Virus record (IMG/VR): IMGVR_UViG_3300010158_000028
Span: 1 to 64,000 of that record
Direction: 5' to 3' (one strand)
From: a virus
DNA: 64,000 bases
In this document: piece after piece, positions 27,938-44,985 of the stretch
How positions within the stretch are numbered: the first letter of the stretch is position 1
Layout: each line of letters begins with the position of its first letter
The notes under the pieces: model-generated
Told to the model about the DNA's origin: nothing
Seen by the model: the letters and a program-made list of their open reading frames with translations, nothing else
Databases searched by the model: none
Program-made: the position numbers and the translations under genes

Positions 27938-28235
27938 TATCCTTGATATACTCTAAATCTTTGAATAGATTATATCGGACACCATTCTTTGCGGGTGCTT
28001 TGTAACTGGATGCCATTAACACATTACCCGTCTTTTTCTCTACGAAGGCATGAACTGAAGCACTACTACTCCATTCATCAGTTTCCTTGTATTTTTGCTT
28101 CATAATAATCTTAAAATACTTATTACCAGAGTCAATCAAGTAATATTGAGTAAAAAAAGAATTAGAAGCGGTTTTCTCATAAATTCCATGTAAAATATCG
28201 CAATACTCACATACCAACTGTTCAACTGTTTTCAT
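27900..28235 (-). CDS. conserved phage early protein
   Basis: 'SVHAFVEKKTGNVLMASSYKAPAK..RYNL..ADWAGSYLY'. Confidence 0.72.
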   Translation of the reverse strand: MKTVEQLVCEYCDILHGIYEKTASNSFFTQYYLIDSGNKYFKIIMKQKYKETDEWSSSASVHAFVEKKTGNVLMASSYKAPAKNGVRYNLFKDLEYIKDNADWAGSYLYKR

Positions 28236-28236
28236 C

Positions 28237-28449
28237 TTAGGCCCTCGTCAATTGAATATCAAATTTAAACTGGTTCATTTTCTCATCGTATAGAGTAACC
28301 GTCTTACCAATACCACGGTCTTTACCCATACAATCCAAAGCAAAGAACATAGCAGTATTCTGTAAACTAAAATCCGATACAGTGCGCCTCTTAATTGCAG
28401 TGGTACTAGTATAAAAACAAACATTATTTACAATTGCTCTAATTTTCAT
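28237..28449 (-). CDS. hypothetical protein
   Basis: AGGAG RBS directly after a promoter cassette. Confidence 0.65.
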   Translation of the reverse strand: MKIRAIVNNVCFYTSTTAIKRRTVSDFSLQNTAMFFALDCMGKDRGIGKTVTLYDEKMNQFKFDIQLTRA

Positions 28450-28470
28450 AACAACTCCTAATCAACTATT

Positions 28471-28512
28471 CAGACTACATTATAACAGAACTGTACCCAA
28501 TGTCAAGCGTTT
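28471..28512 (-). promoter_or_regulatory. early promoter cassette
   Basis: TTGACA 28501-28506, 16 nt, TATAAT 28479-28484; conserved GTAGTCTGA leader. Confidence 0.85.
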
Positions 28513-28517
28513 CACTG

Positions 28518-28592
28518 TGGTGGGCCTACTAAGAATTGAACTTAGACTCGTTCGATTATGAGTCGAATGCTTTACCATTAAGCTATAGGCCC
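28518..28592 (-). tRNA. tRNA with CAU anticodon (probably Ile2, otherwise elongator Met)
   Basis: GGGCCTA/TAGGCCC acceptor; TTCGA-CTCATAA-TCGAA; CCA; lacks initiator features. Confidence 0.9.
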
Positions 28593-28602
28593 AAAAATAA
28601 TC

Positions 28603-28745
28603 ATTGTAAAGTGCTATGTGCCGATTTGTCAACAAAGGTGCTTCCTCTGACAAGCGAATAGCGGTTATATCAGGACCTGTTCCTCGCACAGTTAGGCCCG
28701 CATAGTGGCTGATCAATTCCACGATACCCTATAGCACTTTACAAT
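28603..28745 (-). ncRNA. putative structured ncRNA A closed by a 15-bp stem
   Basis: Perfect inverted repeat ATTGTAAAGTGCTAT 28603-28617 / 28731-28745 enclosing GC-richer internal hairpins. Confidence 0.6.
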
Positions 28746-28755
28746 AACTACTCTA

Positions 28756-28890
28756 AGAGTATTATAAGGGTGAACACTATCCGTTGACTCTTCTTAACAA
28801 CCTAGGCTAACGCCACATGGTTTTTCTAAAGATTTTACTCTTCCCGGTCAGAAACAGGACTGGCAACAGCATTCACTCTTATAATACTCT
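28756..28890 (-). ncRNA. putative structured ncRNA B closed by a 19-bp stem
   Basis: Inverted repeat 28756-28774 / 28872-28890 (one mismatch), extendable by G-U pairs on the minus strand. Confidence 0.58.
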
Positions 28891-28918
28891 CAAATTTTTA
28901 AAGAACAATCAATCAATT

Positions 28919-28956
28919 CAGACTACATTATAACACAACTATACCAAATGTCAAGC
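28919..28956 (-). promoter_or_regulatory. early promoter cassette driving the ncRNA-ncRNA-tRNA unit
   Basis: TTGACA 28949-28954, 16 nt, TATAAT 28927-28932; leader lacks the AGGAG RBS seen in sibling cassettes. Confidence 0.85.
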
Positions 28957-28957
28957 A

Positions 28958-29170
28958 TTAATTATTATTTTCCAATTCAGATACCAGACACAAAACCTTA
29001 TCCATATTAACATATTCCACCTTGGATTGCCAGTCCAACCTAACTTCATACTGAATAACTGCATCAGCACCGAACTTAACACGACTATCCAACACGGTAC
29101 CCCAGCACTCAGCACCCTCAGAGGTTATAATAACAACATGGGCACCTTCTTCGTATCTTTCAATAATCAT
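28958..29170 (-). CDS. hypothetical early protein
   Basis: AGGAG RBS; single gene between two promoter cassettes. Confidence 0.65.
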   Translation of the reverse strand: MIIERYEEGAHVVIITSEGAECWGTVLDSRVKFGADAVIQYEVRLDWQSKVEYVNMDKVLCLVSELENNN

Positions 29171-29192
29171 AACAACTCCTAATCAATCAATT

Positions 29193-29249
29193 CAGACTAC
29201 ATTATACCATAATGGTACCGAATGTCAAGCGTTTTGTAAGTCATTGATT
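29193..29249 (-). promoter_or_regulatory. early promoter cassette plus IHF box
   Basis: TTGACA 29223-29228, 16 nt, TATAAT 29201-29206; AATCAATGACTTA 29237-29249. Confidence 0.85.
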
Positions 29250-29402
29250 CTAATGCAATATTATCTGGTCAATATTCCTTAGATAATCCTCATAAGCGTC
29301 CAGAACTAGTAAAACACTCATTAATTCATTCTCGGGTAACTTCTTCAACTCGGTCCGAACTACCTCAGGTTCTGCAGTAATTAACATATTATAATCAATC
29401 AC

Positions 29403-30839
29403 TTATGCCGCCTTTCTAACAACTTTTAAAGATACTTTTTTGCGACCATTTAATACTCCTTTCAACTCTTGGTGAGTCATTTGGCCTTGTAATGAATGGC
29501 AATCTTTACAGAGAACTACGCCATCCTCAACTAGTCCACCCTCAGAATATGGAGTATCGTGTGCCCATTCTGTATTTTCCAATTTTACGGATTTCTCACA
29601 AGCCCAGCATTTACAGTCTTGATGATTAAAAACTTGACGGCGTTGAGTTAAACTATAACTTCGTTTGGATTGAAGGAGAGTAACACCCAATTTAGACAGA
29701 TTACCTTTCTTTTTCATATACTGCAATATAATCTTACCAACTTCCTCTTGAACATCTGGTTCTGAATACGCACCATCATTAACACGGACAAAATGCTTAA
29801 TAGAATGTATTTCATTTTTAAATGATATCGGCACATTATCAAGAGTCTTATCTACAGTACCAGTCAAAGCGGAACGAACTTGATCGAATGGTTTTACAAA
29901 TTTCTCCATATCAATCTTAAATGCTTTATTTTGTGCATACAGATGAAACCACACACATTGGAATGCGCCAAAATCACTATCCCGCAACTTTTTTCCATAA
30001 ACTTTACCAAAATTCATAAAATCATCAAAAAATCGTGCCATATCTGACCGATGCTTCTTAGTGATTACAACACTATCTTCCTTTTCAATCATTCGGATAG
30101 TCTTTTTCTCACCCGCATCCACATGACCGCCACTTAATATCTTATGAAGGATTACCCAAACCCAGGTATGCCAGATGGCTCGTTCATTAATTGAACTGAA
30201 ATAAACAGACTCTGGTTGTCCTTGGTCACTGGTACGGATTTCAAAGATTGGATGACACTTATTAAAATTATACTCTGGATAAGATTTTGTTATTTTCCGC
30301 ACCTCTTCACAAAGAACAGAGGAATCATTATTCATAATCAACTCATAACCATTGGCAGAAGTCGTTTGATTTACAATCTTAAAAGCATCAATTGCCGCTA
30401 ATGAGGTACAGGTTATATAATCTAATGTAACTTGAAAATTATCAAAATGTTTTCTTTCTGCATCCGTAAATTCACGATAATACTTCTCTACGCCACACAC
30501 GGTAACTGTAAACTTATTATCTCTAAAATTATTAATTGCACGGCATCGGTGTCCACCATCAATAACTAGTGAATCATATCCCACATACATTTTCTTAACT
30601 TTTTCTTCGGTTGTTTTTGTGATATCCCGAAGCGTCAAAGAACCAATACCAAGACCTATCATAATAGCACTAATAATGCCTCGATCCTTTTTACTACCTA
30701 TTATAGTGAATAGAGGAGGGCGCTGGCCAACAGGATCAGGATTCAATTCCTTTTTATTAATCATATCCGAGAGCTCTTTTACTGTCTTAATAACTCTCCA
30801 ACATCCATAAGTAGGGCTAAAACTCATAATTATCTCCAT
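29403..30839 (-). CDS. DUF262/ParB-like domain plus C-terminal HNH nuclease (GmrSD-like)
   Basis: 'QRP', 'VIDGGHR', 'FKIVN'; C-terminal 'CWAC..WAHDTPYSEGG..LCKDCH'. Confidence 0.75.
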   Translation of the reverse strand: MEIIMSFSPTYGCWRVIKTVKELSDMINKKELNPDPVGQRPPLFTIIGSKKDRGIISAIMIGLGIGSLTLRDITKTTEEKVKKMYVGYDSLVIDGGHRCRAINNFRDNKFTVTVCGVEKYYREFTDAERKHFDNFQVTLDYITCTSLAAIDAFKIVNQTTSANGYELIMNNDSSVLCEEVRKITKSYPEYNFNKCHPIFEIRTSDQGQPESVYFSSINERAIWHTWVWVILHKILSGGHVDAGEKKTIRMIEKEDSVVITKKHRSDMARFFDDFMNFGKVYGKKLRDSDFGAFQCVWFHLYAQNKAFKIDMEKFVKPFDQVRSALTGTVDKTLDNVPISFKNEIHSIKHFVRVNDGAYSEPDVQEEVGKIILQYMKKKGNLSKLGVTLLQSKRSYSLTQRRQVFNHQDCKCWACEKSVKLENTEWAHDTPYSEGGLVEDGVVLCKDCHSLQGQMTHQELKGVLNGRKKVSLKVVRKAA

Positions 30840-31105
30840 TATTTTCTATATGAATTACCATATCGGTCTAAAACTACTTGTAACTGAGGTTCTACGGTAA
30901 ACCATCTTTTTACATTGAGAATCCCTGGTAAATTAGGCAACTCATATAGTGCTTTCTTTGGCATCCACACAAATCGCTTGGTGGATAACACTCTGAACTT
31001 AACTGCAGTCAACCGGTCCTCGACAACTTCGCAAGGAAGCGCTTGGTTGAAAGCCACATGAGAAAACCACAAGGATTTAGTATCACCAATGTTCATATTA
31101 AGCAA
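30839..31105 (-). CDS. hypothetical protein
   Basis: Coupled ORF. Confidence 0.55.
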   Translation of the reverse strand: MLNMNIGDTKSLWFSHVAFNQALPCEVVEDRLTAVKFRVLSTKRFVWMPKKALYELPNLPGILNVKRWFTVEPQLQVVLDRYGNSYRK

Positions 31106-31304
31106 ATTCTTTAGTGTAAATATATGCTAAATCAGCACATCCAATGGAAAACAGAAAGTCCTTAAACAAGTATCCCATCTCCATCGCTTTTACAAGAGAA
31201 TCACCGTTATAAATCGCAATTTCACCCATATATCCTTGGTCCATAATGAAATCTGCATAGGCATCACTGTATTGCAACTCATAAATTTTATCTTCTAGAC
31301 TCAT
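31098..31304 (-). CDS. hypothetical early protein
   Basis: AAGGA RBS after a promoter cassette. Confidence 0.65.
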   Translation of the reverse strand: MSLEDKIYELQYSDAYADFIMDQGYMGEIAIYNGDSLVKAMEMGYLFKDFLFSIGCADLAYIYTKEFA

Positions 31305-31325
31305 AATAATTCCTTTTTCTCAATT

Positions 31326-31368
31326 CAGACTCTATTATACCACAACTATACCGAAAGTCAAGCGTTTT
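31326..31368 (-). promoter_or_regulatory. early promoter cassette
   Basis: TTGACT 31356-31361, 16 nt, TATAAT 31334-31339. Confidence 0.85.
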
Positions 31369-31495
31369 ATATCATAGTAACAGTAATTACAGCATCCTCG
31401 GCGCCAAATTGCTGAATAACCTCTTGCATAATCTCATAAACTTGAATCCAGTCGTTGGCAATCAAAGTCTCATCAGGGCATTTTACTAGGTACAT
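31367..31495 (-). CDS. 42-aa early protein (not in the ORF track)
   Basis: AAGGA RBS; MYLVKCPDETLIANDW...; its stop abuts the next cassette. Confidence 0.6.
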   Translation of the reverse strand: MYLVKCPDETLIANDWIQVYEIMQEVIQQFGAEDAVITVTMI

Positions 31496-31520
31496 AGGGA
31501 TTCCTTCGTATCAATCAATT

Positions 31521-31558
31521 CAGACTCTATTATACCAGGTCGGTACCGAATGTCAAGC
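31521..31558 (-). promoter_or_regulatory. early promoter cassette
   Basis: TTGACA 31551-31556, 16 nt, TATAAT 31529-31534. Confidence 0.85.
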
Positions 31559-31613
31559 ATTATTTCCGTTATTATCTAGAGGATTTCTATGATCCCGCCC
31601 TGTCCACCCTGTT

Positions 31614-31686
31614 ATTATACCATAAACGGCACTGGATGTCAAGCATTTTCTGAGGATCCTTTGATAGGATCCCTAAGTCATTGATT
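31614..31686 (-). promoter_or_regulatory. early promoter plus IHF box
   Basis: TTGACA 31637-31642, 17 nt, TATAAT 31614-31619; AATCAATGACTTA 31674-31686. Confidence 0.7.
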
Positions 31687-31861
31687 GGATTGACCTTTTC
31701 TGAGGATTCTTGACGGTCCATCTCTCAGATTACGTAAACGTGAGGTGTTTTGGATTATATTCCTGGTGTTTATTTATATGTCGGTTAGTGACCACTTACT
31801 TCGAAAATTACGAATGACCGGTTGCAGGACACTTATACACATATTATACATGAATTATACA

Positions 31862-32437
31862 TTACCGAATGAACTCAAAATTTAGTCCTATTGACCTTCT
31901 ACGGAATGTAGGATTTAGATTGATTTCAACTGTATGCATCATATACGCAGGAAATACTACGAACTTATCTGGCTCTGGTGATATCCTATACATTCTTTTA
32001 CCACCAGATTCTAATCTTTTATCTGAGGTTGTTATATTCAAATTATTATATTCTTTTGTTTCAGGCCAAGTGGTGCCTCCTCTTGGATCTAAAAGAATTA
32101 AGTCACCACATAGAGGTGCTGAATTGATATAGTATATACCATTGACTACACATGACATATGATTATGTGTGCCCATTCCTTCTAGAAAGTTATTAGAGGT
32201 TACCCAGCATGCTTTTATATTGACTGAACTAAATTCATAGTATGGTTTAAAGTATTCGGTAACACATTCAAAGATCATTTTTTTAAATGTTATTAGAACC
32301 GTATCATCTGTATGAAAATTTCTAACTCTTTTTTGTGGATCTAAAGTATCAATAAATGATTGAACTTCATCCAAAACTCCTAGATTATGAAAGACCATAA
32401 TAGGTGTTGGGAATATATCAAATCTCTGTGAATTCAC
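31862..32437 (-). CDS. 2OG-Fe(II) oxygenase (TIGR02466-like)
   Basis: 'IFPTPI', HxH 'THNH', 'GIYY', 'LLDPR', 'FPAYMMHTV', 'RRSIGLN'. Confidence 0.85.
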   Translation of the reverse strand: MNSQRFDIFPTPIMVFHNLGVLDEVQSFIDTLDPQKRVRNFHTDDTVLITFKKMIFECVTEYFKPYYEFSSVNIKACWVTSNNFLEGMGTHNHMSCVVNGIYYINSAPLCGDLILLDPRGGTTWPETKEYNNLNITTSDKRLESGGKRMYRISPEPDKFVVFPAYMMHTVEINLNPTFRRRSIGLNFEFIR

Positions 32438-32475
32438 TATAATTAACTCCTTGGCATAAAATTATATATATTGTC

Positions 32476-33327
32476 ATGATTATACTATTAATATTGATAT
32501 TGATCGGCAGTAACACATATGCACAAACACTAGTCACTAGATCAAGTCCGGGTGGTACTGTTGATACTATCTCTAGAGAATTGATTAAAAATACTCCTAT
32601 TGTTATAGAAAATAGACCTGGTGCTGATGGTGATATTGCTTTAGAAAATGTAATTAATTCTAAAGGAAATACATATTACATCGGTCAACTCAATGCATAT
32701 CTAAAGTATTATATGAATATTGATGATGGTAATAAGAGTATTAATGTCCAAAAAGAATTTGATTATGTTGCCCATGTTGGAAATGTATTAAGTGTGATAA
32801 TTATCCATCCAAATGTTCCAGTTAAAACTATTAACCAATTAATTCAAATTGCAAATACTAATCCAAATACTATAAATTTTGGCACTACAGGCAAAGGAAG
32901 TACCTCAGATATTGTCTATAGATTACTAGGTAATAAATTCTATAACATACCATATAAATCTTCTATAGGTTCACATATTGATCTTATCAGTGGTCAAATA
33001 GATGTTACATCATCAACTGTATTATTATCAAGACCACTACATAAAATAGGTAAAATTAGAATAATACTCAAATTATTTGATGAACCTCTTGATGATATTA
33101 AAGGATCAAAGAATTTAATTGTCCATACCAATGTAATGATACTAAGTAAAAAAGGTAGGATTGATAATAAATTTAAAGATAATATCGTTAGTATAATAGA
33201 ATCTGATAAATTTAAATTAAAAATGCAAGAGAATGGAATATCAGTAAAATCATTGAATAATATTGAATATGATATGCTCCTGACTAATCAAATAAATCAG
33301 TGGAAATCTCTACGGTTGATTAGATAA
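32476..33327 (+). CDS. Bug/TctC tripartite tricarboxylate transporter substrate-binding protein (divergent)
   Basis: 'PGGTVDTISR', 'VIENRPGADG', 'IPYKS', 'DLISGQID'. Confidence 0.8.
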   Translation: MIILLILILIGSNTYAQTLVTRSSPGGTVDTISRELIKNTPIVIENRPGADGDIALENVINSKGNTYYIGQLNAYLKYYMNIDDGNKSINVQKEFDYVAHVGNVLSVIIIHPNVPVKTINQLIQIANTNPNTINFGTTGKGSTSDIVYRLLGNKFYNIPYKSSIGSHIDLISGQIDVTSSTVLLSRPLHKIGKIRIILKLFDEPLDDIKGSKNLIVHTNVMILSKKGRIDNKFKDNIVSIIESDKFKLKMQENGISVKSLNNIEYDMLLTNQINQWKSLRLIR

Positions 33328-34359
33328 TACAGACCGCACTTGGTCTATAGTTGGAGATATTGATTCAGGTACCATTTGGCCATCACTATCTGCCCAACAT
33401 ATTTTCCAAGTAACATTGTTGGAATAATATCTCACAACATTAGATGATTTTAATTCAATATCCTGACCAATAAAATCAGAAAATACTTTTCTTGATTTTG
33501 TATAATGATTGGCTATTGACCAAGATTGAAAATCTGGTGTATCAAAGAAAGATTCAGTATTAACAAAATTGCCAGTTATACCTATAAACCGATATCTTAT
33601 AGAATACCATTTCATTACAAAAGATATCCACCAATAAAAATCATACTTAGTTTTTATCTCTATTGGTGATCTACTCATTAAACCCTGTAGATATTCTTCT
33701 ATATTTCTAAATGCAACCTTTTTATCAGAATAATATTTTGCCATGGCACTACTCTTAAATCTATTTTTATACCAAATGCCCATATTCATTGCATTAAAAA
33801 CTATTACCGATAAATTAAAAGGAATAACATTTTTACCCATATCAATACCTGGAAAATTGGATAACCAATAATTGTTTGATACATTATAAAGATATTTTCC
33901 ACCACTTCCGGTAATAACTTTAGTTTTTAATATATTACCATTCATTAACTCACTTAAAGGTACAATATCATGAGACAGATGTTTTATTCTCTCATATACT
34001 TCGGGTAAAGTCTGTATATCATTATCTGTTATTATAACATGAGGTCTTGCACCAACATCCTCTAATGCTTTAACAACAACTAATGATGATAGACCGGATA
34101 CCAATACATCTTGATAACCTTGGTTCTTTAAGTCTGTTGCCCTCTCATATACGATATCAGAGAAACTCTTTGTTGTTAAATAACTAGGTATAGGACATGG
34201 TGTTAGATTGAAAATACTTGGCACTGTTCTATCAATACCCATACCTGTGTTGCCTAAAAATCCTATTTGATATGCGGTTAGTGTGTCTGTGTAATCAATA
34301 CCCAATTCATCTAACCGATCAAATGTAGATGGATTCTTATATATTAATAAATTACTCAC
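33310..34359 (-). CDS. degenerate PP-loop (Asn-synthetase-like) paralog
   Basis: Shares 'PIEIKTKYDFYWWISF..KW' and 'FFDTPDFQSW' with its neighbours; SGGxDS eroded to 'VSGLSS'. Confidence 0.6.
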   Translation of the reverse strand: MSNLLIYKNPSTFDRLDELGIDYTDTLTAYQIGFLGNTGMGIDRTVPSIFNLTPCPIPSYLTTKSFSDIVYERATDLKNQGYQDVLVSGLSSLVVVKALEDVGARPHVIITDNDIQTLPEVYERIKHLSHDIVPLSELMNGNILKTKVITGSGGKYLYNVSNNYWLSNFPGIDMGKNVIPFNLSVIVFNAMNMGIWYKNRFKSSAMAKYYSDKKVAFRNIEEYLQGLMSRSPIEIKTKYDFYWWISFVMKWYSIRYRFIGITGNFVNTESFFDTPDFQSWSIANHYTKSRKVFSDFIGQDIELKSSNVVRYYSNNVTWKICWADSDGQMVPESISPTIDQVRSVLSNQP

Positions 34360-35480
34360 TTCAGTAACTTTTCAATAGTATCTTTTGGTATTGTTTCAGA
34401 ACTTTTAAATACATTACCAACATCATCAATTAATCTAAAATACTGAGGAGGATTAGACGCACCACCAGATGCGGATGTTGATGCCAATGGCTCTTTATTC
34501 AAATAATAATCTTCATCATTGGTATAATCATAAATTATTTTCTTAATTGGTCCTTTTATTTCTTGTGTCTTTAATACACCATTATATGTAAGAGCATAAT
34601 TGATAAAATCTTCAGTATCGTAAAATCCTTTTATTGTATCAAATATATTTGGATTTTCTCCTCTTGTTACACATACGTTATATGCTTTACCCCAGCGTGA
34701 AAGCCAAATAAACCACTGCAGATCCAATAAATTATTAATTTCAACAGGACATTTATTCTTATACTGATTAAGTTGATCAATAACAGCATCTTTATTAAAA
34801 AATAAACTTAATGCATTAATTTCACCACGATCAATTGTAATTTTATCTTTAATTGTATTGAAAGACATAGTACCATCATCATCAAGCATTGAATAGATTT
34901 TAATTCTTTTTCTCCATGTATCACTTGTATGCCGAGGAAATGGACTACCATGTATACCCAATAAATTATATCTATCAGTATTTGCCATAAAAATAGAATA
35001 AACGTCACATATATCTTTTACTAATATATTCTTATCTTTAAGGTGTGTTTCATAGAACAATGGATATTCTTTTGTGATTGATGCTCGTGTAGTTATAATT
35101 TGTATTTTTTCATGCCACTTAGAATCTGCCTTCATAAAACTAATTAACATTCCAGTAGAGTCAATACCACCAGACCAAAATATTCTAAGTGGCGTTTTGG
35201 TTTCTAATAATTCATTAGCTCTTTTATCGCATAATTCTTCAAAAACTTTATTGCAATCACCTGTCATTTCATTGACATTAAGGGATAACGTGGGTAAATA
35301 ATTTTGTATAGGTAAATTTACAGAACCTGTTCTATCCAATGTATTATGACAGGAAAATATTCTATTAATATATTCATTTGATGCTAAATTAATGTTATCA
35401 TCTTTATTTTTTAATATAGGTAATAATTGATGTAATAAATCATCATTAAAAATTTTAATTTTGTTCATTTGGTGTAACAC
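34356..35480 (-). CDS. PP-loop adenine-nucleotide alpha-hydrolase-like protein
   Basis: 'FWSGGIDST', 'EYPLFY', 'IYDYTNDEDY..NK'. Confidence 0.75.
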   Translation of the reverse strand: MLHQMNKIKIFNDDLLHQLLPILKNKDDNINLASNEYINRIFSCHNTLDRTGSVNLPIQNYLPTLSLNVNEMTGDCNKVFEELCDKRANELLETKTPLRIFWSGGIDSTGMLISFMKADSKWHEKIQIITTRASITKEYPLFYETHLKDKNILVKDICDVYSIFMANTDRYNLLGIHGSPFPRHTSDTWRKRIKIYSMLDDDGTMSFNTIKDKITIDRGEINALSLFFNKDAVIDQLNQYKNKCPVEINNLLDLQWFIWLSRWGKAYNVCVTRGENPNIFDTIKGFYDTEDFINYALTYNGVLKTQEIKGPIKKIIYDYTNDEDYYLNKEPLASTSASGGASNPPQYFRLIDDVGNVFKSSETIPKDTIEKLLK

Positions 35481-36562
35481 TCCCTTAGTAATTGTTCACA
35501 TTTAGATTCATCCATATTAATTAAATGTCCGTTGGTTGTAACTAACCGCATACCTCTGATTAAATGCTTAACTGGTTCAACTGATCTACCCATTGACTCA
35601 TGTTGTAACTTGTTCACTCTATACTCATTATCACCAGTGAATTCATAGATAAAATCTTTTGCTGGTTGTTTATATGTGTTCCATGTATCACCCAACTTAA
35701 CATCTAAATTGGACATTGCCCATCGTTGGTAATATAAACTATTAAAGAAACTTATCTTGTTATCAAATATAGTTATATCATTGACTGCTGCTATGGCACG
35801 ACTCTTAACATGATCCCATTTGTGTGTGAAGGTTAACATCCAATATAAATCTGCAACTGTTTTAATAGGCACAGGAAACTTCTCTATCTGTTGTTCAATA
35901 TAATCTATTGTAATATACAACCGTTTATGTTTTTCGGTATGCAAATAGAATTCATTATGATTATATAACTTAGAGTAGTGTTGTTTCCTCATCTCACCCA
36001 TATCTCTCATAATGTTACACCCCCATATCTGATCACCACATGTACCATCAATAGGTAACACATCAAGATCAAATAGCTTCTTATCAAAGAATTCTAGATT
36101 CTTTAACATGACCACATCGGCATTCTTTAAGTAAGTATCATAGAATAGTGGATACTCTTCTTTGATGGCATACTCTGAGGTATAGATTCTAACTCTATTC
36201 AACCAATCACTATTTGTCATCATTAGAGCAACCAATGCAACTGTTGAATCAATACCACCTGACCAGAATACGCAAACTTTTCTATTACCTGCAACTGACC
36301 ATATATCTTCTGCAGTCTTTAATGATGTTTCAGTGAATGTATCTGAAGTATTAAACTCTGTAGGTATAGGTGTGCCATCAAAATTAAATACAAACTCATG
36401 GTTTCTATTAATTGGTCCTGATATGTTTAATAGATTACCAACACAGAACAATGCCATTAAATCAAAGACTCTTTCTTTTTGTGTGAGGTAATAGTCTTTG
36501 ATTGCTATTTGTATTATTTGTTCTCTGACTACATCATCAATATAATATTTTATCTTATGCAT
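35465..36562 (-). CDS. PP-loop adenine-nucleotide alpha-hydrolase-like protein
   Basis: 'FWSGGIDSTVAL', 'GTCGDQIWG', 'YKQPAKDFIYEFTGDNEY..NK'. Confidence 0.78.
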   Translation of the reverse strand: MHKIKYYIDDVVREQIIQIAIKDYYLTQKERVFDLMALFCVGNLLNISGPINRNHEFVFNFDGTPIPTEFNTSDTFTETSLKTAEDIWSVAGNRKVCVFWSGGIDSTVALVALMMTNSDWLNRVRIYTSEYAIKEEYPLFYDTYLKNADVVMLKNLEFFDKKLFDLDVLPIDGTCGDQIWGCNIMRDMGEMRKQHYSKLYNHNEFYLHTEKHKRLYITIDYIEQQIEKFPVPIKTVADLYWMLTFTHKWDHVKSRAIAAVNDITIFDNKISFFNSLYYQRWAMSNLDVKLGDTWNTYKQPAKDFIYEFTGDNEYRVNKLQHESMGRSVEPVKHLIRGMRLVTTNGHLINMDESKCEQLLRECYTK

Positions 36563-37482
36563 TACTTCTTCATTATTGCTTTAGACCATTGTTTATCATC
36601 AATAACCAAAAACTCATGGAATTCTTTTGGTCCGTATGCCCATATGGTCACATTCTCTTGTTTAACTTTATCTTTCACATCCTGTTTATCTAATGCCGAT
36701 AATACTGCACTGGTTACTTCATCGGCAATTTTTCTATCATAATTCTTTGGTGCAACAATACCAAACCAACCAGGATAATTGAATGATTGTTTAGTCATCT
36801 CTTGAACTGTAGGTATAGTATTCATTAAAATATCACGATGGGTTGTTGTAATAGCAACTGCTCGCAACTTACCAGAATCAATATGTGCTTTTGTTCCTTG
36901 AATACCACTGACTAATAGAGGTGTTGAACCAGACATTACAGTCAGCAGTCCATCACTAGTGCCTCTATGTGGAATAGCCTCAACTTTAAAATTGAATTTG
37001 ATACCTAACTGTTCAATGATTAGATTATTGGCACCTGCAGTACCAGCAGAGGCAATATTAATAATACCATATTTCTTTGATAGAGTGGGCAACTCTAATA
37101 GATTCTTCATTACAAAATTAGGATGTGCAGATATCAAATAAGGATATGCACCAACACCAACAACTGCTTTGAATTCTTCTAGAGGTATGTAACTCAGGTT
37201 GTTTAGATATGCGGTGATCAATAAACTATTTGGTGTGAACAACAATACATTATCTCTGATTGCTTTTTGACGACCAACATCACCACCTGCGCCGCCAACA
37301 TTTTCAATAATAATAGTTTTATTTAAAGTCTTTGATGCTTCTTTGGCTAGAATTCTAGCAACTAAATCTGTACCACCACCGGGTGGAAATGGTACAATCA
37401 TTTTTATATCTGCGGCACTAACATTTAATGATAAAATCATGCCAATTAAAATACTAAACCAATTCATAATACTTCCTTTCAA
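36562..37482 (-). CDS. Bug/TctC substrate-binding protein
   Basis: Signal peptide; 'IVPFPPGGGTDLVAR', 'IENVGGAGG', 'GKLRAVA', 'WFGIVAP'. Confidence 0.9.
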   Translation of the reverse strand: MKGSIMNWFSILIGMILSLNVSAADIKMIVPFPPGGGTDLVARILAKEASKTLNKTIIIENVGGAGGDVGRQKAIRDNVLLFTPNSLLITAYLNNLSYIPLEEFKAVVGVGAYPYLISAHPNFVMKNLLELPTLSKKYGIINIASAGTAGANNLIIEQLGIKFNFKVEAIPHRGTSDGLLTVMSGSTPLLVSGIQGTKAHIDSGKLRAVAITTTHRDILMNTIPTVQEMTKQSFNYPGWFGIVAPKNYDRKIADEVTSAVLSALDKQDVKDKVKQENVTIWAYGPKEFHEFLVIDDKQWSKAIMKK

Positions 37483-37976
37483 TTCAATAATGTGTTTAGA
37501 ACTACAACCTGTTCATTTACCTCTTCTGTTGTTGTTGCTGATTGTATATTGTTTGCAACATTTAATATATTTTGTTTTAGTGTTACATTATCTATAAGAG
37601 TAACAATGTTTTGAATGACCAAATGATTATTACCTATTGTATCAAGTGCATCAATAAAATGTTCCGTAATTAATTGTTCTTTTATAACAACTATTTTGGA
37701 TTGATCAAATGACCATTTATTCTTTTCAATATCAAATACAACATCGTTGATTTCTGGCTTTTCTCTAGTAACAATACTATATTCTGTAGTTGAACCTTTC
37801 TCAATTGGTTTACCATCCTCATCAATATAGTATGCACGAATCCATGTTTCTAATTCATCGGACCAAATAGAATCATATGGTAAATCAACATGATAAGGTA
37901 CATACTTATGGATTCTTACATCATTATCTTCAACTACACCTAAGTATTCACCCTTTGAATTTATAGCATAACTCAT
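37479..37976 (-). CDS. hypothetical protein, possibly tail-fibre-assembly-like
   Basis: Downstream of the adhesin-like gene; 'GEYLG' and 'W..E...W' repeats. Confidence 0.4.
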   Translation of the reverse strand: MSYAINSKGEYLGVVEDNDVRIHKYVPYHVDLPYDSIWSDELETWIRAYYIDEDGKPIEKGSTTEYSIVTREKPEINDVVFDIEKNKWSFDQSKIVVIKEQLITEHFIDALDTIGNNHLVIQNIVTLIDNVTLKQNILNVANNIQSATTTEEVNEQVVVLNTLLN

Positions 37977-38356
37977 TCTATTTTACCTATCAATTCGTTT
38001 TTGAGATTGTTAATGGTTTCAATTTCAGTAACATTGGTACTATCATTGATTACTGTAATACCAGTGGTTAATACTTGAACTTTAAAATCACTATTCACTG
38101 TAGTTAGAATTTTATTAATCTCACTGTAGTTATTAATCTTTTTAGAAACATCAACAATTAGATTCTTTAAAGCAGTTTGTTTATAATCTTCAAATACATT
38201 AAATGTTGATGTTGAACCATCTTCATATACTATTGATACACCATCTTCTTCAAAGGTTACTTTCTCACCATCATAGATAAATGTACCAATATTATATGTA
38301 TTGGCATTTTTATACATGTTGTATATAACTTTTGCTTCGTTTTGTATTTTAGCCAT
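37973..38356 (-). CDS. hypothetical protein
   Basis: Coupled ORF. Confidence 0.5.
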   Translation of the reverse strand: MAKIQNEAKVIYNMYKNANTYNIGTFIYDGEKVTFEEDGVSIVYEDGSTSTFNVFEDYKQTALKNLIVDVSKKINNYSEINKILTTVNSDFKVQVLTTGITVINDSTNVTEIETINNLKNELIGKIE

Positions 38357-38362
38357 TTGTTA

Positions 38363-39106
38363 TTACCATGTTAATGTAAACCAACCAAGATATCCATTTG
38401 CTTCTGTGTTGTTACCTGTTGCGTTATTGAAACCACTCCACCAATTTGATACAGTAACATTATTACCTGCATCACCAGTATTCCAAGCACTAGGATATGT
38501 TCTCAATTCAACTGAATTTGTTGATATCTTAGTAATTCGATAGGTGTAAGCGACATTTCCTTGAGCATAAAAACCACCTTCACCACCACTAGAAGCACCA
38601 ACATCAGTGTTAGTACTAACACCCAATGCAACAACATCTATACTTTGCCACCAATGGAATCTTGTATATGTATTAGTTGTATCATACCTATATTTTTGTC
38701 CATCAGCATTACCATTGTATCCTGCCGTGTTATCTGCTCCTCTTGCACGATATTGTAACCATACAGCACGAAGATCCGAACTTGGAGCTTGTTGATTTAT
38801 TTCTGGTCTACCACCCATTGCGGCAACTGTAAGCCAAACACTACCATCTACCCGATCTAATGAATATGCACTAGCAGCAAAATACTGTCCAACAGAAATA
38901 AGAGACTGAGAAATTCCAGATGGTTTTGATGTGCCATAAAAATTACTAAATGCAATTGCGCCTGATCCAGGTATATTGGTATTTGATGAATCATTAGCCA
39001 CATATGAACCACCTCTATAGTATTCACTCATACTAACAGGATTGGTTCCACCAAATTCCGTTTGTATTTCAGTTAATGCTAATGCACCAGAACTTTGAAT
39101 AGTCAT
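38363..39106 (-). CDS. putative tail-fibre tip/adhesin-like virion protein
   Basis: N-terminal 'SSGALALTEIQTEFGGTNPVSMSEYYRGG..SGAIAFSNFYG' module common in phage fibre-associated proteins; aromatic, Gly-rich C-terminus. Confidence 0.6.
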   Translation of the reverse strand: MTIQSSGALALTEIQTEFGGTNPVSMSEYYRGGSYVANDSSNTNIPGSGAIAFSNFYGTSKPSGISQSLISVGQYFAASAYSLDRVDGSVWLTVAAMGGRPEINQQAPSSDLRAVWLQYRARGADNTAGYNGNADGQKYRYDTTNTYTRFHWWQSIDVVALGVSTNTDVGASSGGEGGFYAQGNVAYTYRITKISTNSVELRTYPSAWNTGDAGNNVTVSNWWSGFNNATGNNTEANGYLGWFTLTW

Positions 39107-39115
39107 TTAATGCCT

Positions 39116-39403
39116 TTACCAATTAATTTTTTCTTCTTCATCATCGTCTAATGATGGTATATTTATCGCAAAATCTTCAGGCTTTAACATATACTCGCCT
39201 GCTCTTCTGCGATTAAGGTTTTCTATAGCATATTTATTCATCCTGGAAGTGGCAATTCCTTCAGGTGTTCTATAGTATTCAGTCAATTTAAGACTGCGTT
39301 TTAGTTTGCCCTCTTGACTGTGTTTTCGAGCATTACCACAACTTTGACTACAATATGGTCCTCGTTTGTTGTGTTCTTTGCCACATCTTGGGCACTCTTT
39401 CAT
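39116..39403 (-). CDS. Zn-finger protein
   Basis: CPRC..YCSQSC. Confidence 0.6.
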   Translation of the reverse strand: MKECPRCGKEHNKRGPYCSQSCGNARKHSQEGKLKRSLKLTEYYRTPEGIATSRMNKYAIENLNRRRAGEYMLKPEDFAINIPSLDDDEEEKINW

Positions 39404-39621
39404 GCCAATAAATTATTGATATAATAAACTGCTTCAGCCTCGCTAGTGAAATATCGTATTAGAACTTCATCACTAGCAATAGACTGAAACAGTATCAATA
39501 CATTATCACCACATATTGAGAACTTAATGATCCATCCATTCCTAATAACAGGAATAAAACTTTTTGTATTACTTCTTATTGCCTGAAAAGGCGTAATTTC
39601 CTTGGATGATTTGTTTTGCAT
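39400..39621 (-). CDS. hypothetical protein
   Basis: ORF overlapping its neighbours. Confidence 0.5.
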   Translation of the reverse strand: MQNKSSKEITPFQAIRSNTKSFIPVIRNGWIIKFSICGDNVLILFQSIASDEVLIRYFTSEAEAVYYINNLLA

Positions 39622-39781
39622 TTTCTGTACCAGTTTCCATAAATTTTACCATACTATCTAAGTATGTATTCTTTTCAGAACCTGTGAATTTACTAAATGC
39701 ATCTACATATGATTTAACTGCACCAACCTGAACATCAATCAAATCTACTGCCAACTCTTGTGTTTTCTTTGTATCAAACAT
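39569..39781 (-). CDS. small amphipathic helical protein, phasin-like
   Basis: AAGGA RBS; 'AVDLIDVQVGAVKSYVDAFSKF' amphipathic pattern. Confidence 0.4.
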   Translation of the reverse strand: MFDTKKTQELAVDLIDVQVGAVKSYVDAFSKFTGSEKNTYLDSMVKFMETGTENAKQIIQGNYAFSGNKK

Positions 39782-39938
39782 GATTCTTTTTCCTTAATGA
39801 ACGTGCTTCAATTAATGTTTCTACCATAATTTTAATGAAATTTTTAATCTTTTCTAACATTTTTGTCCTCTTTAGTAAAGGCCTCACAATGAAGCCTCTA
39901 CTATTATATATCAAAAAATGACACAATGCAACAATAAT

Positions 39939-40718
39939 TTAAGATGATATATTTACAACCTTCGCATTAGATATTTTCACTTGGGCATCTTCTTGTTGTA
40001 TCCGTGCTAAGATATAATCTTTTACCAATGATGACCTAACTATATCTTCAACGGTAAATTCAATCCGTGTAAATGCTGCCATATGCATAGCAATATCAAA
40101 GAACTTTAATATGCCACTCATATCATTCTTACGTTTGGTTAAATCTGTTTGCCTATAATCACCGCACCATATAATTTTAGACCTATAACCTACCCGTGTC
40201 ATAACAGTATCAATCTCTTCAAAATTTAAATTCTGCATCTCATCCACAATAATGATTGCATCATCAAAAGACATCCCACGGATAAATGAGGTTGATATGA
40301 ACTGAACATAACCTTGTTCTTCTAATCGGTCCCATGCATCTTTCCGATCAAATAAGGTATGACAGATTTGTTTGTATGGTTGCTGGTAAATATCCATCTT
40401 TTCATCTACATCACCAGGCAAGTGTCCCATCTCTCTTGACTGAACTGCAGACCTAACTACAATGATTTTCTTGAATGGATTTGATTTGTCTAAAACTTCT
40501 TCTAGTGCTTTGTATAATGCACAGAATGTTTTACCTGTACCTGCAACACCGTGTAATGCTATAAAATAATCACCGTGTCTATATGCTTCAAAGAATGACT
40601 TTTGGTTCTCTGTTAATGGTTGAAATGTTTTTAGGTCATCAATTCTGATTTTAAGTGTTTGATGAGTCTTGGTTGTTTGTCTTTCAACGACATTATTTGC
40701 AGATTGTTTTCTGGACAT
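39939..40718 (-). CDS. phoH: PhoH-family ATPase
   Basis: 'GVAGTGKT', 'GHLPG', 'FIRGMSF', 'VDEMQN', 'GDYRQTD', 'DIVRS'. Confidence 0.93.
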   Translation of the reverse strand: MSRKQSANNVVERQTTKTHQTLKIRIDDLKTFQPLTENQKSFFEAYRHGDYFIALHGVAGTGKTFCALYKALEEVLDKSNPFKKIIVVRSAVQSREMGHLPGDVDEKMDIYQQPYKQICHTLFDRKDAWDRLEEQGYVQFISTSFIRGMSFDDAIIIVDEMQNLNFEEIDTVMTRVGYRSKIIWCGDYRQTDLTKRKNDMSGILKFFDIAMHMAAFTRIEFTVEDIVRSSLVKDYILARIQQEDAQVKISNAKVVNISS

Positions 40719-41119
40719 ATTATTCCCTTTAAATGGGCTCTGTGTATTTTACACGATACCCAACTGTTATAGTATTCTTCAGATAACAAAGCATTTCTTG
40801 TAAATATTTCATATGTTTCCCAATAAGAACAAGGTGCTCTTGTTTTGCATAAATGTAATATTGTGCGTTTGAAATTCTCCTTTCCGTATTGTTGAACATC
40901 TTTCTTTACTTCATCAGAGGAAGACCAATAGGTCAACCAATCAGATTGTTTTCTGATTTTCTTTTTCTTACCTTTGATTTGTTGTGTACCAGATTTGGTA
41001 AAGAACTTACGACCGATATACTTTTTACCAGTCGTAAGATTCTCTATGAGATAAACGAAACCGTAATAGGTTTCTACATCTTCTTGTGTGAATTCAATAT
41101 TATTATAAAACCATGTCAT
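40631..41119 (-). CDS. GIY-YIG endonuclease (T4 endonuclease II-like)
   Basis: 'GFVYLIEN..GKKYIGRK', 'YWSSS', 'YYN'. Confidence 0.8.
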   Translation of the reverse strand: MTWFYNNIEFTQEDVETYYGFVYLIENLTTGKKYIGRKFFTKSGTQQIKGKKKKIRKQSDWLTYWSSSDEVKKDVQQYGKENFKRTILHLCKTRAPCSYWETYEIFTRNALLSEEYYNSWVSCKIHRAHLKGIICPENNLQIMSLKDKQPRLIKHLKSELMT

Positions 41120-41135
41120 AATAATATATAGTCAA

Positions 41136-41282
41136 TTAGATATCTTCGTTTTGATATTCTTTATTTACTATCAGATATTCAGCACAGAACGGACAATATG
41201 TGGGACTATCTTCACAATCATCCTCATCGTAAATTATTTTATACTTTGAGTCACAATTGTCACAGTGATGTTTTAAAATCAT
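41136..41282 (-). CDS. small Zn-ribbon protein (not in the ORF track)
   Basis: AAGGA RBS; CDNC..CPFC; 48 aa. Confidence 0.65.
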   Translation of the reverse strand: MILKHHCDNCDSKYKIIYDEDDCEDSPTYCPFCAEYLIVNKEYQNEDI

Positions 41283-41292
41283 TTTCTATTCC

Positions 41293-42288
41293 TTATGATG
41301 CTTTCCCCCATACATCTCCCCATGAACCTCCTAATGCACCCTTTGCGTAATCTGTAGCACGATTCTCAAAAAAGTTTGTATGAACTGGTGCATTGATCAT
41401 CTCTTCAACCCATGGTAAGGGATTGCGTTTAACTTTATAAATGCCTTTAAGACCCAATGATATCAGTCTACGATCAGCAATATATCTTATATATGTTTTA
41501 ACATCTTTGGGTGTTAAACCTTCAATTGCACCTAGATTGAAACACAAATCGATGAACTTATCTTCCAACTCAACCATTCTCTCTGCAATACTATAGATTC
41601 TTTCTTTCAAATCATCATTCCATATCTCTTTGTTCTCTTCAATAAAGGTTCTAAACAACTTAATCATAGACTCAGCGTGCATTGTTTCATCTACAATAGA
41701 CCATGTAATAATCTGTCCCATACCCCTCATCTTACCATGTCGAGGAAAGTTTAATAACATAATGAATGAACTAAACAACTGCATACCTTCAGTAAATGCA
41801 CTGAATACAGCGATATGCGTAGCAGTATTATCTATTGTAGAATTCTGTCCTGATATATCTGTTACATAATCATGTTTCTCTACCATCTCTTTGTATTTCA
41901 TGAATTCATTATAGGTAGACTCTGGCATACCTAATGTTTCAATAAGATGACTATATGCTGCAATGTGTAATGCTTCTCTTGCTGCAAATCCCATCAACAT
42001 CATACGAACTTCTGGTTGAGGAAAATGGGGTAGATAGTTATTAACATAACCACCTGCAACATCAATATCACCTTGAGTAAAGAATCTAAAAATGTTTGTA
42101 AGAAATTTCTTTTCTTCGTCTGTTAGTTTCTTTTTCCAATCTTTAACATCTTCTAGCATTGGTACTTCACTATGAATCCAATGAGATTGTTCATGTTTCA
42201 ACCATGCATCATAGGCCCATGGATAGTTAAACGGTTTGAATGATACTCTCGTGTCTGTCAGTTTTGATTTTGTTTTTGCGGCGTTCAT
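41293..42288 (-). CDS. nrdB: ribonucleotide reductase class Ia beta subunit
   Basis: 'FFTQGD', 'EALHIAAYS', 'EGMQLFSSF', 'DETMH', 'NFFENRATDY'. Confidence 0.95.
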   Translation of the reverse strand: MNAAKTKSKLTDTRVSFKPFNYPWAYDAWLKHEQSHWIHSEVPMLEDVKDWKKKLTDEEKKFLTNIFRFFTQGDIDVAGGYVNNYLPHFPQPEVRMMLMGFAAREALHIAAYSHLIETLGMPESTYNEFMKYKEMVEKHDYVTDISGQNSTIDNTATHIAVFSAFTEGMQLFSSFIMLLNFPRHGKMRGMGQIITWSIVDETMHAESMIKLFRTFIEENKEIWNDDLKERIYSIAERMVELEDKFIDLCFNLGAIEGLTPKDVKTYIRYIADRRLISLGLKGIYKVKRNPLPWVEEMINAPVHTNFFENRATDYAKGALGGSWGDVWGKAS

Positions 42289-42517
42289 ATTTCTTTGCTC
42301 CAATAATTGTTACATTGCTTTCTGTTTCTATCCATACTCTTGCACCACAAGATAATGGTTTATCTGGACTATACACTATTTTTGAAGGACCGTCAATAGA
42401 TACTTCATGACCATAAGTGTTTGTCTTTCCTTGTTTAACTGTAAGAACTGGTTCATTTTCTTTGTGTATTCTGTTACTCTTTATTATGTGTTGATTAACA
42501 TGAATAATAGTTTTCAT
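42227..42517 (-). CDS. conserved phage protein
   Basis: 'IHVNQHII' and 'PLSCGARVWIET'. Confidence 0.7.
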   Translation of the reverse strand: MKTIIHVNQHIIKSNRIHKENEPVLTVKQGKTNTYGHEVSIDGPSKIVYSPDKPLSCGARVWIETESNVTIIGAKKYERRKNKIKTDRHESIIQTV

Positions 42518-42520
42518 TTT

Positions 42521-44329
42521 TTATCCTTCGCAAGCTAGACACTCGTTACCCTGAGCAATGGCAGTCATGTCTAATTCTTTAATTATGTTTCGTTCAATTC
42601 GTTTTGATATCTTATCTGCTTTACCAATCTTTTCACTACGGCAATAGTATAGTGTTTTCAGTCCACGTTTCCATGCTAAGAAGTGACAAGCATGTATGTA
42701 TTTGATATTTGCATCTGGTCTAAAGAATAGATTTAATGATTGTGATTGGTCAATATACAATTGTCTATCTGCAGCATGTTCAATTACCCACCGTTGATCT
42801 ATCTCCATTGATGTTTTGAATATATCTTTTTGATATGCATCTAAAATATCTAAATGTTGAACTGAACCATCATTAGCAATAATACTAGACCAGATATCAT
42901 TATAATCATTTTGATTAACTAAACCAGAATCATCTGCTAATTTAGTTTGAATGAATCTATCTAACCATTTGTTCTTTGCTAATGACGATCCAGATAATGT
43001 ATCCTGACGATAAGCATTAGCACGATAAGGCTCAATAGAAGGACTAGTGTTTCCCATAATGATAGAACTGGAAGCATTTGGTGCAATAGCCATAAGATGG
43101 GAGAAACGCAAACCACTGCCAACAGCATCTGGAGCTTCTCCTCTAAGTTGCCCCAACTCTTTATTGGCTTCATCTAGTTTACTCCTTATATTTTTAAACA
43201 TTCTAATGTTAGCTGATTTAGCAGAGGCACTTTCAAATGCAATTAGGTTCTTTTGTAGATACGCATGAAAACCGAGAGCGCCAACACCAATAGACCGTTC
43301 ACGCATAGCAGAATATCGTGCCCTTGATATGCTGTCAGGAGCATTATCAATGAAATACTGAAGAACATTATCGAGCATCTCTGCGGTGTCTCTAAGAAAT
43401 AATTTATCATCTTTCCAATCATCATAATACTCCAAGTTAAGTGAAGATAAACAACATACTGCTGTTCTATCTTTATTAGTCGGTAGAATAATCTCACTAC
43501 ACAAATTGCTTTGTTGAATCTTTAATCCTAATTTCTTTTGAAACTCTGGCATCTTAGCATTACTTGTATCAATATAATGAACATATGGTTCACCAGTCAA
43601 CATTCTATTCTCTAATAGTTTTTGCCATAACTCTCTTGCAGATACAACTTCACGAACAACACCTGAATTAGGATCTTTTAATTCCCATGAATCATCTGCT
43701 TGTGTATCATACATTGACTTCTCAACTAATCGCATGAAGTCATCTGTTACATTAACACCATGATGGAGATTCAATGCACGAAGATTTTGATCACCAGTAG
43801 GTTTTCTCATATCAAGAAACAATAAAATATCTGGATGTGATATATCTAAGTATGCTGCATAACTACCTCTACGTGTTCTGCCTTGACGATATGCTAAACA
43901 ACTTGCATCATATGTTTTTAGATGTGGCATGATGCCTACTGATTTATCATCTGAACTACGAATACCTAGACCAATACCTACACCACCACCTAACATTGAT
44001 AACCAGTTAACCTCCGATAAGCAATCGACCAGACCTTCAGCACTATCATGCAGATAAGGTAGAAAACAAGAAATAGGCAACCCACGCCTACTCCTCCCAA
44101 AAGAAAGAATAGGAGTAGAATATGACAACCAATGCTTACTGGAATAATCATAAAGACGTTGACCATGAGCTGAATCAGTTGCGAACATTTTTGATACATA
44201 AGCAAATCTCTCTTGTGGTAAAACTTCATCATCTTTCATGTAACTTTCTTTTAGTCTTTTCAAACCTAACTCATCAAACAAACTATCTCTACTGTAATCT
44301 ATTACTATCTCCGACATTTCATACTCCAT
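42521..44329 (-). CDS. nrdA: ribonucleotide reductase class Ia alpha subunit (no ATP cone)
   Basis: 'PISCF', 'SNLCSEI', 'APNASSS', 'TLYY', C-terminal CLAC. Confidence 0.95.
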   Translation of the reverse strand: MEYEMSEIVIDYSRDSLFDELGLKRLKESYMKDDEVLPQERFAYVSKMFATDSAHGQRLYDYSSKHWLSYSTPILSFGRSRRGLPISCFLPYLHDSAEGLVDCLSEVNWLSMLGGGVGIGLGIRSSDDKSVGIMPHLKTYDASCLAYRQGRTRRGSYAAYLDISHPDILLFLDMRKPTGDQNLRALNLHHGVNVTDDFMRLVEKSMYDTQADDSWELKDPNSGVVREVVSARELWQKLLENRMLTGEPYVHYIDTSNAKMPEFQKKLGLKIQQSNLCSEIILPTNKDRTAVCCLSSLNLEYYDDWKDDKLFLRDTAEMLDNVLQYFIDNAPDSISRARYSAMRERSIGVGALGFHAYLQKNLIAFESASAKSANIRMFKNIRSKLDEANKELGQLRGEAPDAVGSGLRFSHLMAIAPNASSSIIMGNTSPSIEPYRANAYRQDTLSGSSLAKNKWLDRFIQTKLADDSGLVNQNDYNDIWSSIIANDGSVQHLDILDAYQKDIFKTSMEIDQRWVIEHAADRQLYIDQSQSLNLFFRPDANIKYIHACHFLAWKRGLKTLYYCRSEKIGKADKISKRIERNIIKELDMTAIAQGNECLACEG

Positions 44330-44331
44330 TT

Positions 44332-44982: not shown

Positions 44983-44985
44983 AAT

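Follow-up and report, generated by a model that had tools for sequence, protein, structure and literature searches.

To our knowledge, none of the trans-acting small RNAs of T4-type phages has yet been given a function. Two RNAs of phage T4 itself, RNAC and RNAD (species 1 and 2), have stood unexplained for decades (PMC3014915); their function is still unknown (PMC3014915, PMC9697503), and both are classed as late RNAs (PMC9697503). Phages of this type also carry mobile promoter cassettes, termed PeSLs, that mediate gene shuffling (PMC2839356, PMC4122927). Here we describe a phage locus at which two conserved, non-coding, structured RNAs stand in a promoter cassette ahead of a tRNA gene, and at which the second RNA belongs to a family with a regular position relative to tRNA genes.

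The stretch of DNA analyzed here (the window, 64 kb) is the first part of a 161-kb IMG/VR virus record with an estimated completeness of 96%. Its genes include those for a T4 gp61-type primase, for NrdA/B and for a DUF7717 protein that cyanomyoviruses also have, and the source is therefore an uncultured T4-like phage. On the minus strand, the locus is ordered as a promoter, a leader without a ribosome-binding site, a first structured unit (unit 1), a second (unit 2), tRNA(CAU) and a second copy of the promoter. The promoter of this RNA cassette is of the sigma-70 type (28954-28927, minus strand) and consists of TTGACA (28954-28949), a 16-nt spacer with TG, and TATAAT (28932-28927); the preliminary description had called it a consensus promoter, and it agrees with the consensus at 12 of 12 positions with the extended TG. 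A scan of the minus strand nearby gave three perfect 12/12 sites with extended TG, and the promoter-cassette motif occurs four times in the window, with zero occurrences expected by chance (the other copies lie at 28506-28468, 29228-29190 and 4302-4264). The leader (28893-28926, minus strand) has no Shine-Dalgarno sequence, and sibling cassettes have AGGAG at the equivalent place; 23 nt of this leader are missing in two relatives (L006/L007). The cassette is limited downstream by the next promoter cassette (28479-28506, minus strand, 12/12 match), which drives a 70-aa ORF (28449-28237), and a scan of the cassette region found no terminator-like site, nor any before the downstream early ORFs.

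The tRNA(CAU) gene (28518-28592, minus strand) was identified by ARAGORN and by the Rfam tRNA model (76.6 bits), encodes its CCA end and starts 1-2 nt past the end of unit 2 (gap 1 nt). Its antisense strand matches the Rfam Plastid-ycf2 5'UTR family at 49.4 bits, under the gathering score of that family, which overlaps plastid trnI-CAU, and the acceptor stem carries C4 and C5. Given this antisense match and the determinants of TilS, the gene may encode a lysidine-type tRNA-Ile2 rather than a tRNA-Met.

Two further observations concern the surroundings of the locus. A 478-aa ORF directly upstream of the promoter cassettes (29403-30839, minus strand) has a weak C-terminal HNH/endonuclease VII signal and is probably a free-standing homing endonuclease; a pattern search of IMG/VR gave no relative of this protein. 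The spacing between the primase and the DUF7717 gene is ~17 kb here (28235-46017) and ~10 kb in close relatives (IMGVR_UViG_3300009184_000227), and the source phage therefore holds ~7 kb of extra accessory DNA between these two genes.

The two units were originally recognized as adjacent stem-closed elements of 135 and 143 nt, and inverted repeats are present at both places. In unit 1, arms of 19 nt with one mismatch (28756-28774 and 28872-28890) bound the 135-nt element, while in unit 2 the arms (28598-28617 and 28731-28750) include a perfect 15-bp core (28603-28617/28731-28745) that bounds the 143-nt element. In folds of the minus-strand RNA, G-U pairs lengthen these stems to ~27 bp in unit 1 and ~24 bp in unit 2, in agreement with the extension by G-U pairing that had been proposed for this strand, and stem pairing probabilities are near 1. 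The folding z-score is -4.7 for the whole interval. Unit 1 alone (28892-28756, minus strand) has a z-score of -5.3 and a minimum free energy of -46.6 kcal/mol, and is predicted to fold as a 137-nt three-way-junction RNA with a closing stem (arms 28890-28865 and 28781-28756) and two hairpins (28859-28842 and 28832-28789).

The units have no detectable similarity to each other (global alignment score 73.5 vs 64.3+-6.9 for shuffles). Against a weight matrix of the closing stem, P1, of the unit 2 family, the arms of unit 1 score 4.9 and 0.3 bits and those of unit 2 score 16.6 and 18.8 bits. The two helices abut with zero spacer, so that coaxial stacking could be possible, and the sequence UUAGAG (28750-28756, minus strand) is part of unit 1's 3' arm as well as of unit 2's 5' arm; the outermost pairs of both stems therefore cannot all form together.

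We found no credible ORF across the interval, in accord with the preliminary description, which had also recorded a leader without a ribosome-binding site; both the ORF list and the leader sequence, which lacks AGGAG, agree. The one coding frame that merits consideration is a 21-codon hydrophobic frame in unit 1, which might be taken for a toxin-like peptide since its ATG at 28870 lies 4 nt after AAGAG. This ATG is ATA in most relatives (L013, L129, L134 and L130), and all three of the other substitutions within the frame are non-synonymous; unit 1 is therefore non-coding. Longer listed ORFs cross the tRNA gene or sit on the wrong strand, and that the region encodes a small protein is, in our assessment, almost certainly wrong. 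The folding z-scores, the covariation described below and the lack of a coding frame together uphold the original view that both units are structured non-coding RNAs.

Unit 2 is a genuine structured RNA and a member of a conserved ~160-nt family. When a single-sequence covariance model of this unit (R2) was applied to 36 related viral records, it gave one diverged full-length match (102.7 bits), in a contig with a primase of 55% identity. In this first homolog, the RNA takes up precisely the interval that separates tRNA-Glu from tRNA-Lys within a 15-tRNA array, and it shows compensatory changes in every helix with almost identical junction strands. Searching IMG/VR with a 20-nt junction motif gave exact matches in 33 contigs, all 33 of which have a full-length homolog. 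A shifted second motif added 17 contigs with a full-length match; the remaining 3 of its 20 new contigs were chance matches. Altogether, R2 and a further model, R3, match 50 IMG/VR contigs at 94-175 bits. R3, for which most of the sequences came from other phages, gives unit 2 of the window 165.6 bits and homologs 150-175 bits. The primase of three of the five large carrier contigs is 42-62% identical to that of the source phage, and these carriers are therefore T4-like relatives. BLAST of 50,697 GenBank phage records with the window region and one family member returned only tRNA matches or none, and the 20-mer motif had only two chance matches among 185,579 prokaryote genomes, both in MAG contigs and without the RNA.

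Members of the family share a four-way junction, the strands of which are nearly invariant, and a closing stem of 20-24 bp. In the window, unit 2 is a 162-nt RNA (28755-28594, minus strand), a structure described by models R2 and R3 and by covariation in two sets of sequences, and comprises P1 (arms 28754-28731 and 28617-28594), P2 (28727-28700), P3 (28699-28673) and P4 (28653-28626). Between P3 and P4 lies a near-invariant single-stranded block (28654-28673, minus strand; CUGAUAUAAC.GCUAUUCGC), which served as the search motif. Candidate tertiary contacts in the family would join R of CARGGU to Y of AACYGC (A-U 17, G-C 5, G-U 2, U-U 2) and U/C of ACUAUGC to A/G of GGAAC; a further candidate would pair the invariant GCGA of the P3 loop with the UCGC that lies in the junction from P3 to P4. 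The helices GUGG/CCAC, CUGU/ACAG and UUGUCA/UGACAA that had been reported exist as stated but were assigned to the wrong unit, as they belong to the one proximal to the tRNA. The AUCAG/CUGAU pseudoknot suggested earlier did not hold up, being specific to the source phage; the corresponding loop in homologs is GGACGC or AGACGU.

Covariation was evaluated in two sets of homologs. In the first (25 distinct sequences), 94.5% of alignment cells are paired vs 74.2% after shuffling, double changes occur in 38 of 50 pairs vs 23.5+-2.2, and the covariation score is 0.503 vs 0.139, with slid controls at or below 0.107. The second set (15 distinct sequences, nearly none of which went into building R3) gave 95.0% paired cells vs 80.7%, 27 pairs with double changes vs 17.1+-1.8, and a score of 0.402 vs 0.143. 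The alignments behind these pair counts were fitted to the model structure and are biased towards it, a concern reduced by the controls with slid partners and by the independence of the second set. A G-U pair in P3 is preserved in 20 of 25 sequences of the first set and in all 15 of the second, and covariance-model scores on the reverse strand are 25-40 bits vs 95-205 bits forward; the RNA strand of unit 2 is therefore fixed. Covariation among homologs had been put forward as a check on the preliminary description, and it proved strong in both of these sets and amounted to four compensatory pairs in unit 1.

The 3' part of unit 2 also contains a promoter-like site (28603-28632, minus strand; 11/12, with TTGACA, 18 nt and TACAAT) whose predicted start is a few nt upstream of the tRNA, and this site could alone drive tRNA(CAU). 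Its TTGACA doubles as the 3' strand of helix P4, where homologs have TTCACA or TGGCAA with compensation in the partner strand; the conserved constraint is therefore the RNA structure and not the promoter.

The normal home of this widespread family, which is absent from Rfam, is inside phage tRNA arrays. Every tRNA within 1.5 kb of a homolog shares the strand of the RNA. The next tRNA starts -9 to +4 nt from the RNA end in 38 of 49 homologs, the 3' arm of P1 often ending at position +1 of that tRNA. The identity of the next tRNA varies (Lys, Cys, Asp, Tyr, Ala, Glu, Ile or Met). On the other side, P1 reaches with its 5' arm into the final 4-11 nt of the preceding tRNA, almost always Glu(UUC), in ~29 of 49 homologs, and the stem therefore pairs the CCA end of that tRNA. 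Unit 2 of the window is preceded by unit 1 rather than by a tRNA and lacks this feature; the GAGUA before it is suggestive, but only suggestive, of a possible relic of a tRNA-Glu 3' end. In part of the homologs the next tRNA is 76-1226 nt away or absent, and RNase P therefore cannot set the 3' end everywhere.

The units could alternatively be cis elements that act on the polycistronic early transcript, as RNase III sites or in 5' protection, or that tune how the adjacent tRNA matures. RNase III could cut duplexes of 24-27 bp, as it does in the T7 early sites and in rRNA stalks. Unit 2 mostly abuts a tRNA directly, the cassette continues into the downstream early ORFs with no intervening terminator, and in two relatives (L130/L132) unit 1 lies 10 nt before an HNH_3 ORF in the manner of a 5' UTR. 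A simple processing stalk, however, needs no near-invariant multi-helix core of ~110 nt, the tRNA downstream of unit 2 varies in identity and is sometimes missing, and unrelated sequences follow unit 1 in different relatives. As the ~110-nt core exceeds the needs of a processing signal and the downstream tRNA varies or is absent, a trans-acting RNA is favored over a cis element, which we regard as unlikely.

Other gaps in phage tRNA arrays were also inspected (L080-L112, e.g. L098, L101, L103 and L090; 87 gaps of 70-330 nt). A stem of at least 10 bp, flush with the tRNA ends, closes nineteen of the 87 from one end to the other, and many of these stems have the arms AUAUARAAACACA / UGUGUUUYUAUAU, which sometimes start at the CCA end. 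These gaps look like further types of RNA cassette.

Unit 1 is a conserved, lineage-specific non-coding RNA with modest covariation support. Its model (R1), run on 50 related records, found it only in the source phage and two near-identical contigs, with zero matches in tRNA-array loci, and a 16-mer from the unit gave 13 matches in IMG/VR, all by chance. A junction-motif scan of a metagenome collection added seven contigs to the two from IMG/VR, for a total of six distinct variants at 95% identity. Among these six variants, compensatory double changes affect four pairs (vs 1.0+-0.9 for shuffles and 0-1 for slid controls), namely 5-135, 10-130 and 15-125 in the closing stem and 80-87 in the apical hairpin. 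The two internal hairpins are invariant, and covariation support is therefore limited to the closing stem and one apical hairpin; the remaining helices never vary and are neither supported nor contradicted. The outer half of the stem is missing in three relatives (L006/L007/L013), and the full-length stem is therefore not essential. The 49-nt center is identical in every variant.

These variants occupy three genomic contexts. Unit 1 stands alone behind an early promoter in L013 and L135, is followed by unit 2 without a tRNA in L129 and L134, and in L130 and L132 is followed after 10 nt by an ORF for an HNH_3 endonuclease. The co-transcription with tRNA(CAU) claimed in the preliminary description is consistent with the promoter and the adjacency of the genes, but it is not obligatory, given relatives with unit 1 alone or with both units and no tRNA. 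At this locus in L130 (1370-1993, unit 1 included) and in L132, the ORF encodes a 158-aa HNH_3 homing endonuclease (Pfam E = 2.6e-8), and the surroundings there are unrelated to those in the window.

Relatives thus differ by whole modules at promoter cassettes, a pattern that might also be produced by DNA-level elements, either miniature inverted-repeat mobile elements or recombination sites enclosing ~100 bp. The long terminal inverted repeats, the variable presence of modules among close relatives, the occurrence of unit 1 in three contexts with boundaries at the stem ends, and a neighborhood of shufflable promoter cassettes like those of T4-type phages (PMC2839356, PMC4122927) all fit such elements. 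On the other hand, each unit is present in a single copy in the 161-kb genome rather than in the multiple copies of a MITE, no transposase is associated with either, and their orientation is always that of the tRNAs. The G-U pairs of the stems would be A-C mismatches on the opposite strand, and the helices covary, whereas ends bound by a transposase would stay constant. We therefore consider DNA-level elements very unlikely and retain the reading of both units as RNA genes.

Comparison with characterized RNAs had been proposed as a further check, and a cmscan of the window against Rfam 15, at the gathering score and at E<=10, returned only the tRNA and its antisense match; scanning three homolog loci at E<=1 gave zero matches at the unit 2 positions. 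For lack of an Rfam match, Y RNA, 6S, SRP RNA, RNase P, ribozymes, riboswitches, GOLLD, ROOL and HEARO were ruled out. A 2023 catalogue of structured-RNA candidates from IMG/VR (PMC10690425) might list fragments of unit 1 or unit 2, naming no function.

The highly conserved junctions adjoining cleavage sites in tRNA arrays raise the question of whether one or both units are catalytic, either as a novel ribozyme that cleaves itself or as a minimal RNase-P-like helper in processing the tRNA transcripts. In RNase P RNA, the universally conserved regions CR-I and CR-V form P4, and unit 2 has two short motifs with a loose likeness to these regions of E. coli rnpB. A local alignment with E. coli rnpB gave a score of 22 vs a shuffle mean of 22+-3.8, on which RNase P RNA was rejected. 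The CR-I-like motif is variable, with the GAGGAA-like sequence becoming GACCAA or GACUGA in part of the homologs, and it sits inside the covarying P3 hairpin, a further ground for this rejection. The core of ~115 nt is far below the size of any RNase P catalytic domain known to us, and no ribozyme or RNase P family matches in Rfam even at E<=10. A catalytic role thus appears highly improbable.

Our best explanation as a whole, which we consider probable, is that the locus holds two non-coding RNA genes, that unit 2 belongs to a tRNA-array family whose RNA is released by tRNA enzymes, and that the product acts in trans. The transcription, processing route, stability and trans action in this account are read from sequence and gene position. 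Both units would be transcribed on the minus strand from the strong, early-type promoter by the host RNA polymerase. Judging from position, the enzymes that mature the flanking tRNAs would also release the RNA of the unit 2 family, with RNase P acting on its 3' side and tRNA 3'-end processing making its 5' side. The terminal duplex of 20-24 bp would shield both ends from exonucleases and yield a stable small RNA, the conserved core of which would be trans-acting and would most probably bind a protein. No RNase III or CCA-adding enzyme gene was found in the phage genome, and processing would therefore rely on host enzymes; the units are most likely stable small RNAs released by the host's tRNA-processing enzymes.

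In the source lineage, the unit 2 module would have moved into a shufflable early-promoter cassette, behind unit 1 and before tRNA(CAU). This apparent move from a tRNA array to an early-promoter cassette, with or without a tRNA, represents a natural experiment, and its outcome is that function would therefore be separable from any particular neighboring tRNA. The unit 2 family, and unit 1 by analogy, may further constitute a new RNA class that is excised with tRNAs and either neutralizes a host factor early or aids processing of the array, which we hold as a minor possibility. The host factor is a matter of speculation; the RNA could be, for example, a putative decoy for a tRNA-targeting defense nuclease or for an RNA-binding regulator. 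The observation of two structured RNAs in the preliminary description is confirmed, and its interpretation of them as processed early RNAs, possibly decoys, ribozymes or a new class, is partly supported. With at least 50 uncultured phage contigs carrying it, the covarying four-way-junction RNA is a well-defined candidate for experiments.

Several known systems share features with the locus. The YrlA/Y RNAs, which associate with Ro60/Rsr, likewise have 5' and 3' ends that form a long stem under a structured head and a link to tRNA biology. Unlike these, the units have no T-arm or D-arm motifs and no Rfam match to Y RNA or YrlA. The TROVE/Rsr (PF05731) and RtcB (PF01139) domains are absent from the 161-kb phage genome, a search that was positive in control genomes and covered the phage rather than its host. 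A Y-RNA identity was rejected on the missing Rfam match and the missing TROVE and RtcB genes of the phage. GOLLD and ROOL resemble the units as structured phage RNAs that tend to adjoin tRNAs, but they are ~580 to >800 nt long and are in Rfam, whereas the units here are 137 and 162 nt and have no match. The RNase III processing stalks (16S/23S leader-trailer helices and T7 early R sites) are similar in that a duplex flanks a segment of a polycistronic transcript; they differ in that, in the unit 2 family, the stem lines up with the ends of tRNAs, a register that suggests RNase P and tRNA 3' processing.

Among known RNAs, the nearest parallel, by analogy and not by homology, is offered by T4 RNAC and RNAD. 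Like the units, rnaC and rnaD (139 and 119 nt) are small non-coding RNAs on the tRNA strand that adjoin tRNA genes in a T4-type phage, and the analogy of genomic setting drawn in the preliminary description stands. Homology does not, as models and folds disagree: R1 gave zero matches to the T4 tRNA locus at E<=10, and R3, run on the whole T4 genome, did not match rnaC or rnaD and gave one unrelated 14.8-bit match elsewhere. The fold of rnaC has a tRNA-like T arm and no terminal clamp of 20 bp or more, in contrast to the long clamp of units 1 and 2, and the T4 RNAs are late whereas the RNA cassette of the window has an early-type promoter. The arrangement of the cassette itself recalls the PeSLs, with repeated, near-identical early promoter units flanking small genes in a variable region and with the indels of relatives falling at the cassettes. 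PeSLs have been described around protein-coding ORFs, whereas the cassette here carries a pair of RNA genes together with a tRNA. Besides ORFs, such shufflable cassettes of T4-type phages can hold RNA genes.
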